The notes: generated by a model from the letters alone, not told the origin. DNA of 50,351 nt from Candidatus Heimdallarchaeota archaeon (GCA_019058275.1 JAHLVW010000105.1:1-50351), one strand, 5' to 3'; shown: positions 324 through 19,559, numbered from the stretch's first letter. Program-made: numbers and translations.

Positions 324-497
324 TGGTCCGGTCCCGGAGATTTGAATTCCGGGATGAAGTCACGAATGACAACATCGCTCCGGACATCTCGGTGTCCTGC
401 CTTCGCAGCGAACACTGGCTGACTCCAAATCATCACGTCTTCATTGGAGCGACAAAGTCTACAGCCGAGCACTCTAGCCAGGCTGAGTTAGGACCGG
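324..497 (-). tRNA. tRNA-Tyr(GTA) with two introns: 37/38 (394-458, 65 nt) and 53/54 (347-377, 31 nt); CCA encoded
   Basis: Acceptor CCGGTCC/GGACCGG + ACCA; D arm ACTC/GAGT; anticodon stem CTCGG/CCGAG with loop CT-GTA-G|A; T stem CGGAG/CTCCG with TTCAAAT loop. The cloverleaf is restored only after both inserts are removed. Confidence 0.92.
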
Positions 498-18784: not shown

Positions 18785-19474
18785 ATGAATATAATGGTAA
18801 ATTATGATATTCTTGCTTATTACATAGGTTCGAACATTCTTGTATATATGTTGATTCATATTCCTTTAGATTTGATTACTTACAGAAGAAAAACAGAAGG
18901 ATACAAGGAAGATGCTAAGGATTATCCAGCATGGGAGGATCAGAATTTTACAAAAATAATAACAGTCATAACTAGTTTAGTTTTTTGGGTTTTTGTAATT
19001 TTTTGGCCAATATTGCATATATTTGATATAGATGATTTCATTCTCTTCTTTAATTTCGCAATACTATATGTAGATGAAGTTTTCCAAATAATCGGTTTAG
19101 TTTTAGTTGGACTTGGTACCTTTATTGCATCCATTGGTAGAATATCTCGAAGTACAAAAGCTATCTCTTGGGGAGTTCCAAAAGAGCTTACAAAAAAATG
19201 GGGATTTAGAATTGTACGACACCCACTTTATGCATCATATTGTTACTATTTTATAGGTATACCATTAGCTATGCTAAATTATCTCCTTATACCATTAATC
19301 TTAGGGATTTTTGGATATTATTTAACAGCTGTTTATGAGGAGAAAATACTTGTTCGAGAATTTGGTGAAGAATATATTGAATACCAAAAAAAAGTTGGTA
19401 TGCTAGTTCCATTCATTGGAAGACGTAAAGCAGTAACACCAAAAGAGATAAATGGCGGATCTGGCCGGATTTGA
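18785..19474 (+). CDS. Isoprenylcysteine carboxyl methyltransferase/PEMT family membrane protein
   Basis: Multiple TMs; FRIVRHPLY; EEKILVREFGEEYIEYQKKV. Confidence 0.85.
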   Translation: MNIMVNYDILAYYIGSNILVYMLIHIPLDLITYRRKTEGYKEDAKDYPAWEDQNFTKIITVITSLVFWVFVIFWPILHIFDIDDFILFFNFAILYVDEVFQIIGLVLVGLGTFIASIGRISRSTKAISWGVPKELTKKWGFRIVRHPLYASYCYYFIGIPLAMLNYLLIPLILGIFGYYLTAVYEEKILVREFGEEYIEYQKKVGMLVPFIGRRKAVTPKEINGGSGRI

Positions 19475-19559
19475 ACCGGCGACCTTCTGCTATCTCCTGT
19501 TTTTTTTATTTTTGTTCCATTAGGAGGCAGATGCGCTGTCCAAACTGCGCTACAGATCC
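19453..19559 (-). tRNA. tRNA-Arg(CCT) with a 29-nt intron at 37/38 (19492-19520)
   Basis: GGATCTG/CAGATCC + GCCA; anticodon arm TCTGC-CTCCTA|A-GCAGA; BHB central helix CTCC/GGAG; T arm GCCGG-TTCAAAT-CCGGC. Confidence 0.95.

Follow-up and report, generated by a model that had tools for sequence, protein, structure and literature searches.

Trans-acting H/ACA guides for the formation of pseudouridine 35 (Psi35) have been described in the Sulfolobales and in Aeropyrum, where they are known as Sso1, Sto1, Sac1, Mse2 and Ape7, together with sR115 of S. islandicus (PMC2651775, PMC11077068). It was shown that Sso1 and sR115 make Psi35 in vitro, and for sR115 the same was established in vivo by deletion (PMC2651775, PMC11077068). 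A further group of guides is H/ACA-like and atypical, and includes sR203-sR210 of Pyrobaculum and sR109, sR136, sR148 and sR563 of S. islandicus (PMC4652768, PMC11077068). Atypical guides lacking a lower stem or an ACA box were found to be functional, also with the proteins of P. furiosus, and it was demonstrated that Cbf5 can act on them in cis, modifying a uridine of the 5' flank by means of a short 3'-guide duplex (PMC11077068). According to Toffano-Nioche et al., the GA stem measures 10 bp in every crystal structure of an H/ACA RNP and also in the productive guides (PMC4652768).

In this work a stretch of 50,351 nucleotides from Candidatus Heimdallarchaeota archaeon (GCA_019058275.1 JAHLVW010000105.1:1-50351; the window, at its full length) was analysed. 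We propose that the first intron of its tRNA-Tyr gene is probably a cis-acting, atypical H/ACA-type guide module carried in the pre-tRNA and directed at Psi35. From the architecture described below we infer that the module would bind L7Ae and Cbf5, that Psi35 would be formed, that the action would be in cis, and that modification would come before splicing.

The tRNA-Tyr gene and the anatomy of its first intron

A tRNA-Tyr(GUA) gene with an encoded CCA and two introns was read by hand on the minus strand of the window at positions 324..497, and all parts of it given here are on that strand. The exons lie at 497-459, 393-378 and 346-324. Intron 1 (394..458, 65 nt), at position 37/38, holds the hairpin module and separate bulge-helix-bulge (BHB) elements, and intron 2 (347..377, 31 nt) is inserted at position 53/54, between G53 and U54. 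The gene was missed by ARAGORN and by Rfam at its gathering score, which is of practical importance, as standard tRNA finders pass over the locus at 324..497. The genome has 4.1 Mb and 32% G+C, and its assembly is 93% complete. In the assembly, covariance model R1 matched at 324..497 alone, and neither a further tRNA-Tyr gene nor a tRNA-Tyr anticodon arm uninterrupted by an intron was found; therefore all tRNA-Tyr in this 93%-complete assembly passes through an intron-bearing precursor. ARAGORN, with introns allowed, recovered only 27 tRNAs in the genome, 10 of them with introns, and tRNAs with several or non-canonical introns, such as tRNA-Tyr, escape the standard finders. A second intron-bearing tRNA, at 19456-19559 (minus) of the window, was detected by Rfam and missed by ARAGORN; its intron is A-rich, about 30 nt long, and has no K-loop.

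The module is built around a K-loop hairpin that spans 450-422. The 5' strand of its GA stem (GCUCCAAUGA, 441..450, read as GCUCCAA-U-GA) has 10 layers and ends in the G2n-A1n of the K-loop; it is followed by the K-loop itself (AGACGUGAU, 432..440), in which the last nucleotide is a U and the penultimate one a purine, and by the 3' strand (GAUUUGGAGU, 422..431, read as GA-U-UUGGAGU), which begins with G1b-A2b. The order of the stem is G.U, six Watson-Crick pairs, U443.U429, and then the sheared G442.A430 and A441.G431, the sheared pairs being contributed by UGA (443-441) and GA (431-430). Counted from the closing pair up to and including the second G.A, the stem has exactly ten layers, in accordance with the GA-stem rule of H/ACA guides. 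Directly downstream lies the 3' guide strand, CAGCC (417..421), which is complementary to exon residues G30-G34 (GGCUG, 462..466), with 5 bp in register and 0 bp at offsets of +-1 and +-2. In the 5' flank, GUC pairs with G37 and intron nucleotides 1-2, giving a mini-hairpin (451..459) made of G37-A-C, a UUU loop and the 5' guide strand G-U-C. U35 and A36 (460..461) are the sole unpaired nucleotides at the resulting three-way junction, U35 being the proposed target and A36 its 'N'. The RNAfold minimum free energy structure of nucleotides 27-112 is this three-way junction, with U35-A36 unpaired.

On this basis the following course of events may be envisaged. In the unspliced precursor the anticodon arm would open, its 5' half leaving the normal partner to pair with the 3' guide (CAGCC with G30-G34), and G37 together with the first intron nucleotides would form a duplex with the 5' guide strand (GAC with GUC). 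The 10-layer stem, capped by the K-loop, would then stand between the two duplexes, so forming a three-way junction with U35 and A36 as its sole free nucleotides, which is the geometry in which H/ACA RNPs, with L7Ae on the K-loop, Nop10, Cbf5 and Gar1, hold their target U. Cbf5 would turn U35 into pseudouridine, whereupon the RNA would refold to the BHB conformer and both introns would be removed.

The intron thus has the K-loop on an upper stem, a GA stem of 10 layers, and a guide in two parts that spares the target U and its 3' neighbour, all of which characterize H/ACA guides. The lower stem of 5-9 bp is absent, the 5' guide being joined to the target by a loop of 3-6 nt with no partner strand, and so is an ACA or ANA box at 14-15 nt 3' of the closing pair of the GA stem, the only ACA of the gene lying at 27-29 nt, at the end of the intron. 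A canonical H/ACA sRNA is ruled out by these two absences, and it is because of them that the module is classed as atypical. The intron-end ACA (GGACA|CC) was considered as a box and rejected, since an ANA at that place is no more than the 3' bulge followed by A38, and in relatives it is found anywhere between 7 and 27 nt from the pocket. The anatomy is that of the atypical guides, namely a single K-loop hairpin with ten layers in its GA stem, guides in the flanks, and no lower stem. It departs from them in that the module is not an independent sRNA acting in trans, as it is part of a tRNA intron whose beginning is matched by the 5' guide. Tandem sheared G.A pairs and a loop ending in U, as in known K-turns and K-loops, make the hairpin a predicted L7Ae site. 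The 5' duplex is short, with 2-4 bp closed by a loop of 3-6 nt, and we know of no solved RNP with a 5' duplex of such topology. Genes for Cbf5 (on C89) and Nop10 (on C36) are present in the genome, and a match to Gar1 (on C102) is weak, below the Pfam cut-off.

Register, covariation and distribution of the module

The tRNA-Tyr genes of related genomes were gathered blind to the intron, by a pattern for the 5' half and then by BLAST with a relative. Within the class, families f1-f4 and f7 yielded complete tRNA-Tyr genes and f5 and f6 yielded none; the module was found in the 37/38 intron of every complete class gene recovered, with sequences that differ from one another. Layers of the GA stem were counted from the closing pair through the second G.A, and a sequence was scored as in register when its 3' flank gave at least 4 bp opposite G34 and its 5' flank at least 2 bp opposite G37. 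Among the first 34 distinct class tRNA-Tyr genes, both flanks were in register in 30 with a GA stem of 10 layers, and in 0, 2, 1 and 0 with stems of 8, 9, 11 and 12 layers, respectively. At offsets of +-1 and +-2 most sequences gave 0 bp, and the in-register ones no more than 1-2 bp. The addition of g7 orthologues brought the set to 53 distinct in-register sequences. Four members of family f4 (L030, L031, L033 and L034) were missed by the automatic parser and fit the module after hand adjustment only, and K-turn forms with a 5' strand of 9 nt were assigned manually or by another parser.

In a script count, exon positions 31-34 were paired in 53/53 sequences, and U35-A36 were unpaired in all 53 as well. 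Exon positions 28 and 29 covary with the intron guide strand; at position 28 the pair types were U.G in 24 sequences, C-G in 8, G-C, G.U and U-A in 3 each, and A-U in 1. Stem layers 4-10 were paired in 51-53 of the 53 sequences, with 3-5 pair types at layers 4, 5, 6, 8 and 10 and a nearly or fully invariant C-G at layers 7 and 9. The two last nucleotides of the K-loop, which the parser did not impose, were AU in 43/53 and GU in 10/53; the tandem G.A pairs were demanded by the parser on both strands, and their presence is therefore not a result. The 3b.3n position varies (U.U, G.A, C.A, U.A) as in known K-turns, and the K-loop is between 5 and 29 nt long in the class. In other lineages the 3' guide reaches 8-9 bp, as in L046 (CAGCCGAU) and L038 (UAGUUGGGG).

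The second pair of the 5' duplex, which joins intron nucleotide 1 to the guide, was A-U in 25 of the 53 sequences, U-A in 20, G-C in 7 and C-G in 1, and was never unpaired; in the 69-row alignment the corresponding counts were 34, 20, 9 and 2. This pair bears on a further suggestion, namely that the intron, once excised and perhaps circularized, survives as a stable sRNA and serves as a trans-acting guide for other copies of pre-tRNA-Tyr or for a different RNA. It is known that archaeal tRNA-Trp and tRNA-Met introns yield stable C/D sRNAs (PMC3491384), and atypical H/ACA guides do work in trans. Nevertheless, guiding in trans appears quite improbable to us here: the 5' guide is complementary to, and covaries with, the first nucleotides of its own intron, so that the target must be the unspliced precursor, and only 2-4 bp would hold the 5' side.

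Covariation was also assessed over 69 distinct rows in alignment A2, which was fitted to model R1 and so favours the structure, and whose sequences are phylogenetically related and not independent. Standard pairs made up 91.0% of the cells in this R1 alignment and 77.3% after shuffling, and the covariation score was 0.404, as compared to 0.156 for shuffled alignments, a value reached by 0 of 500 shuffles; slid controls scored 0.03-0.08. All 7 Watson-Crick stem pairs change on both sides in the 69 rows, and each of the three helices has compensatory changes. R1 models only 2 pairs of the 5' duplex, the remaining ones having been counted by script, and the MAFFT alignment A1 misplaces pairs 3-4 of the 5' duplex and the sequence L046. 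The hairpin motif alone is not rare, with a background of about 1.2 per kb under a loose score; the evidence for the module is therefore the joint register and covariation, and not the hairpin.

The hairpin was looked for in the introns of the nine other intron-bearing tRNAs of the genome, none of which has a K-loop hairpin. In Loki-related genomes of the same phylum the module contains a true K-turn and a short C-stem hairpin, and a C-stem K-turn substitutes for the loop in the Loki/Thor, DPANN and TACK forms. Families f10, f16 and f21 of the phylum have different tRNA-Tyr introns, from which the module is absent; those of L064 (f10), L074 (f16) and L075-L078 (f21) are long and without a K-turn, and in f21 there is a 9-bp hairpin that starts at G37. 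A scan of 185,579 species genomes, with a pattern that fixed the exon, UGA and GUCAGC only and is biased to the GUCAGC type, matched at least 120 records, which is a lower bound on the distribution. The matches listed include Heimdall, Hod, Loki, Thor, Hermod and Odin genomes, Woese- and Nanoarchaeota, and several Thermoproteota. As a check that the pattern did not impose, we asked whether the 5' strand was complementary and had an RA dinucleotide (GA or AA) after it. Among the matches listed, this was so in 27/28 of Loki/Thor type (Loki, Thor, Hermod and Odin), in 40/41 from DPANN and in 7/8 Thermoproteota MAGs, as well as in 1/6 that are labelled bacterial, the sequence of that single match being identical with one of Loki type.

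The second and third introns of tRNA-Tyr genes were seen to come and go among close relatives, and intron 1 with its module stays constant. Extra introns were found in the variable region (L005/L006), in the D-arm (L084/L087/L108), in the T-loop (L012/L013/L036/L094/L096), and at 53/54 in L008 and in the window (377-347). In one genome a truncated second tRNA-Tyr 5' half with a guide hairpin and no recognisable 3' exon (L043; G033:C52, about 122277-122400, plus strand) sits 2.5 kb from the intact gene L012, of a related family, and may be an orphan half or a remnant of integration.

Box C/D features, splicing and the role of Pus7

Box C/D guides have a terminal K-turn formed by boxes C (RUGAUGA) and D (CUGA), and a guide of 10-12 nt upstream of D or D'. 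In a preliminary description of the locus, intron 1 was seen as a guide or switch of C/D-like character, whereby UGUCGCUCC (454-446) acts on the 5' splice site of intron 2, targets or masks G53, and orders splicing. The sequence elements on which that model drew are present. AUGA (444-441) and GUGAUGA (436-430) lie 4 nt apart on the minus strand, both within the hairpin formed by CUCCAA (449-444) and UUGGAG (428-423). UGUCGCUCC pairs with GGAGCGAUG (381-373), which is the proposed target GGAG|CGAUG (373..381, minus), through 7 Watson-Crick and 2 GU pairs, at -13.6 kcal/mol by duplexfold; the fifth nucleotide upstream of AUGA does pair with G53, and the 9-bp duplex appears in the minimum free energy structure of the whole precursor. 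The K-loop geometry that was suggested is real and strongly conserved, in a register other than the one that had been assigned to it: with G442.A430 and A441.G431 as its sheared pairs, the K-loop uses the second GA of the supposed box C and not the box-C register. An internal K-loop of C'/D' type is thus found, and as this is common to H/ACA K-loops, it does not discriminate between the two classes.

Comparison with orthologues does not bear out the remainder of that model. GTGATGA occurs 7 times in the window against an expected 6.6, as by chance, and the heptamer is absent from 9/11 orthologues of the same family, UGAUGA being found only in L001 and L004. Only this genome has the 9-bp pairing to intron 2, which falls to 0-5 bp in 10 orthologues; the match is thus real here and not conserved, and G53 with the intron-2 splice site loses its standing as a target. 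An intron at 53/54 is absent in 8/10 family orthologues, L005/L006 have another intron, placed in the variable region, and L008, the sole orthologue with a 53/54 intron, has 4 contiguous bp at -6.2 kcal/mol, as compared to -13.6 here. Where the T-stem changes (to GAGAG, CCGAG or CUGAG), intron 1 does not change with it. Orthologues that lack intron 2 retain intron 1 with its hairpin, which speaks against a role in ordering the splicing of intron 2; this second intron is a lineage-specific gain that lies outside the guide module.

The C/D class, and with it 2'-O-methylation, fails as well. There is no terminal pair of boxes C and D, CUGA being absent from intron 1, as the preliminary description had itself cautioned, and there is no free guide of 10-12 nt that obeys the N+5 rule; a box C/D guide was rejected on these grounds. 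The segment before AUGA that was taken for a guide belongs to the covarying stem, of which it forms one strand, and therefore is not free to pair as a guide, and the 9-mer is held constant by its part in that stem and in the 5' guide. A search of the Rfam C/D families over positions 300-520 of the window, at a permissive E-value, gave only sub-threshold noise. With the K-loop and the duplex in this genome on one side and the orthologues on the other, we consider that model extremely improbable. Of the broader idea that intron 1 is a guide or an L7Ae-dependent switch on its own precursor, the L7Ae-type K-loop stands and a guide acting on its own precursor is indicated, and the C/D class and the intron-2 target do not stand. 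What a C/D-type intron looks like in the same genome is illustrated outside the window by tRNA-Trp(CCA) (G000:C36:26639-26780, plus strand), whose 67-nt intron contains CUGA, 8 nt, and GAUGAUG, an arrangement that resembles a D'/C' K-loop. Among Asgard archaea, this intron may correspond to the C/D guide intron of euryarchaeal tRNA-Trp.

The archaeal BHB has a central helix of 4 bp flanked by 3-nt bulges on opposite strands, with cleavage after the second nucleotide of the bulge, and both introns of the gene conform to it. For intron 1 the elements, read by hand, lie at 393..417 and in their pairing partners upstream: a small hairpin (417-406), an h' helix in which CGAAG (405-401) pairs with CUUUG (457-453), a central helix of GCAG (400-397) with CUGU (464-461), and the bulges AG|A and GAC|A (396-393), the latter relaxed, with 4 nt. 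Intron 2 has a CCGG/CCGG central helix, bulges AG|C and AA|U, an h' helix of GAUG with CAUC, and an inner hairpin (GUCA..UGAC). When the two conformers of intron 1 were evaluated explicitly, the pocket fold gave -45.1 kcal/mol and the BHB fold -49.7 kcal/mol, and the two are mutually exclusive. In the pocket fold the G37|A junction is inside a helix, and therefore that fold cannot be the substrate for splicing. The calculated energies are consistent with a refolding that would follow the departure of the RNP.

These features also bear on whether the conserved pairings are merely part of the splicing architecture. In the short introns of L025, L027 and L028 no candidate for the central helix exists apart from the CAG of the 3' guide, as this explanation would have it. 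The pocket conformer, on the contrary, places G37|A in a helix and not in a 3-nt bulge, and the gene in the window has separate BHB elements (GCAG, CGAAG) downstream. A BHB, moreover, needs neither a K-loop nor a stem of exactly 10 layers, and nine other introns of the genome do without either. An origin of the pairings in splicing alone is in our judgement very improbable.

A protein-only route to Psi35 has to be weighed as well. In the Sulfolobales Pus7 is deficient; a deficiency of that kind was looked for here and not found, apart from a change of R/H to S in motif II. The Pus7/TruD homologue (G000:C61:54657-55856, minus strand, 423 aa) is apparently intact and keeps the catalytic Asp and the Arg of motif IIIa. 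Its motif II reads GTKDKSA, against GTKDKRA in M. mazei TruD, the second basic residue having become Ser; this basic pair was discussed by Muller et al. 2009. As Pus7 is seemingly intact, Psi35 could be made without a guide, and the guide is not obviously needed. The hairpin might accordingly be an L7Ae-bound scaffold that dispenses with Cbf5 and presents U35-A36 to Pus7 or to another enzyme of the anticodon loop, or that times splicing. Such a role would fit a Pus7 that looks, by its residues, catalytically competent, the lack of an ACA box and of a lower stem for the PUA domain of Cbf5, and the intron dependence of Psi35 formation by Pus7 in yeast and plants (cited in PMC2651775). It would leave unexplained the fixed distance of 10 layers from the junction to the G.A pairs, which is a constraint of L7Ae-Nop10-Cbf5 (PMC4652768) and not of Pus7, and a bipartite guide that spares exactly U-N is a hallmark of H/ACA RNAs; in addition, the Pus7 of P. 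abyssi works without an intron (PMC2651775). We regard the scaffold as unlikely, and hold to the H/ACA-type guide acting in cis as the preferred reading.

Comparison with known guides and introns

The closest functional likeness is to the guides of the Sulfolobales and Aeropyrum. These also target U35 of the unspliced tRNA-Tyr(GUA), carry a K-turn on the upper stem, and place the 3' guide on the anticodon arm up to G34 and the 5' guide on G37 and the intron, leaving U35 and A36 free. They are stand-alone RNAs, whereas the module described here lies within the intron of its own target and has no lower stem and no ACA at a fixed place. To the atypical guides the module is linked by its anatomy, with a single K-turn or K-loop hairpin, a 10-layer GA stem, an ACA that is not obligatory, and guides in the flanks. 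Those guides are, in contrast, stand-alone sRNAs, mostly for rRNA, in which modification in cis is a side activity; here the cis arrangement would be a conserved design, set in a tRNA intron. To our knowledge, atypical H/ACA guides have so far been known from Crenarchaeota only, and if our proposal is correct their range would extend to Asgard archaea, DPANN and other lineages.

Guide RNAs in tRNA introns are themselves known from the C/D introns of euryarchaeal tRNA-Trp and of Nanoarchaeum tRNA-Met, which similarly bear an L7Ae-binding guide for their own precursor (PMC3491384). The tRNA-Trp type differs in that it works through a fibrillarin/Nop5 RNP, directs 2'-O-methylation, and has boxes C, D', C' and D and free guides of 10-12 nt, none of which applies to the present intron. 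No description of an intron-borne H/ACA guide was found in the literature searched, relevant reviews included, a kind of search by which absence cannot be proved. If true, the reading proposed here would make this the first H/ACA-type guide inside a tRNA intron that acts on its own precursor, and thereby the pseudouridine counterpart of the tRNA-Trp C/D intron.

The proposal would also explain in functional terms why the tRNA-Tyr intron persists. Tentatively, and as a possibility that we rate as less than even, we suggest that this intron has been kept across Asgard, DPANN and TACK archaea as a self-contained Psi35 guide, that its mutually exclusive folds amount to a checkpoint by which the RNA is modified and then spliced, and that the near-universal eukaryotic tRNA-Tyr intron linked to Psi35 is a relic of such an archaeal guide, kept after Pus7 had taken over catalysis. 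Eukaryotic pre-tRNA-Tyr and Pus7 (cited in PMC2651775; PMC11408192) are alike in having an intron that is required for, or dedicated to, the modification of U35 before splicing, and unlike in that the enzyme there is protein-only and the introns are short and have no K-turn. If the proposal holds, the intron of Asgard archaea would form a bridge to the long-known and unexplained intron dependence of Psi35 in eukaryotes.
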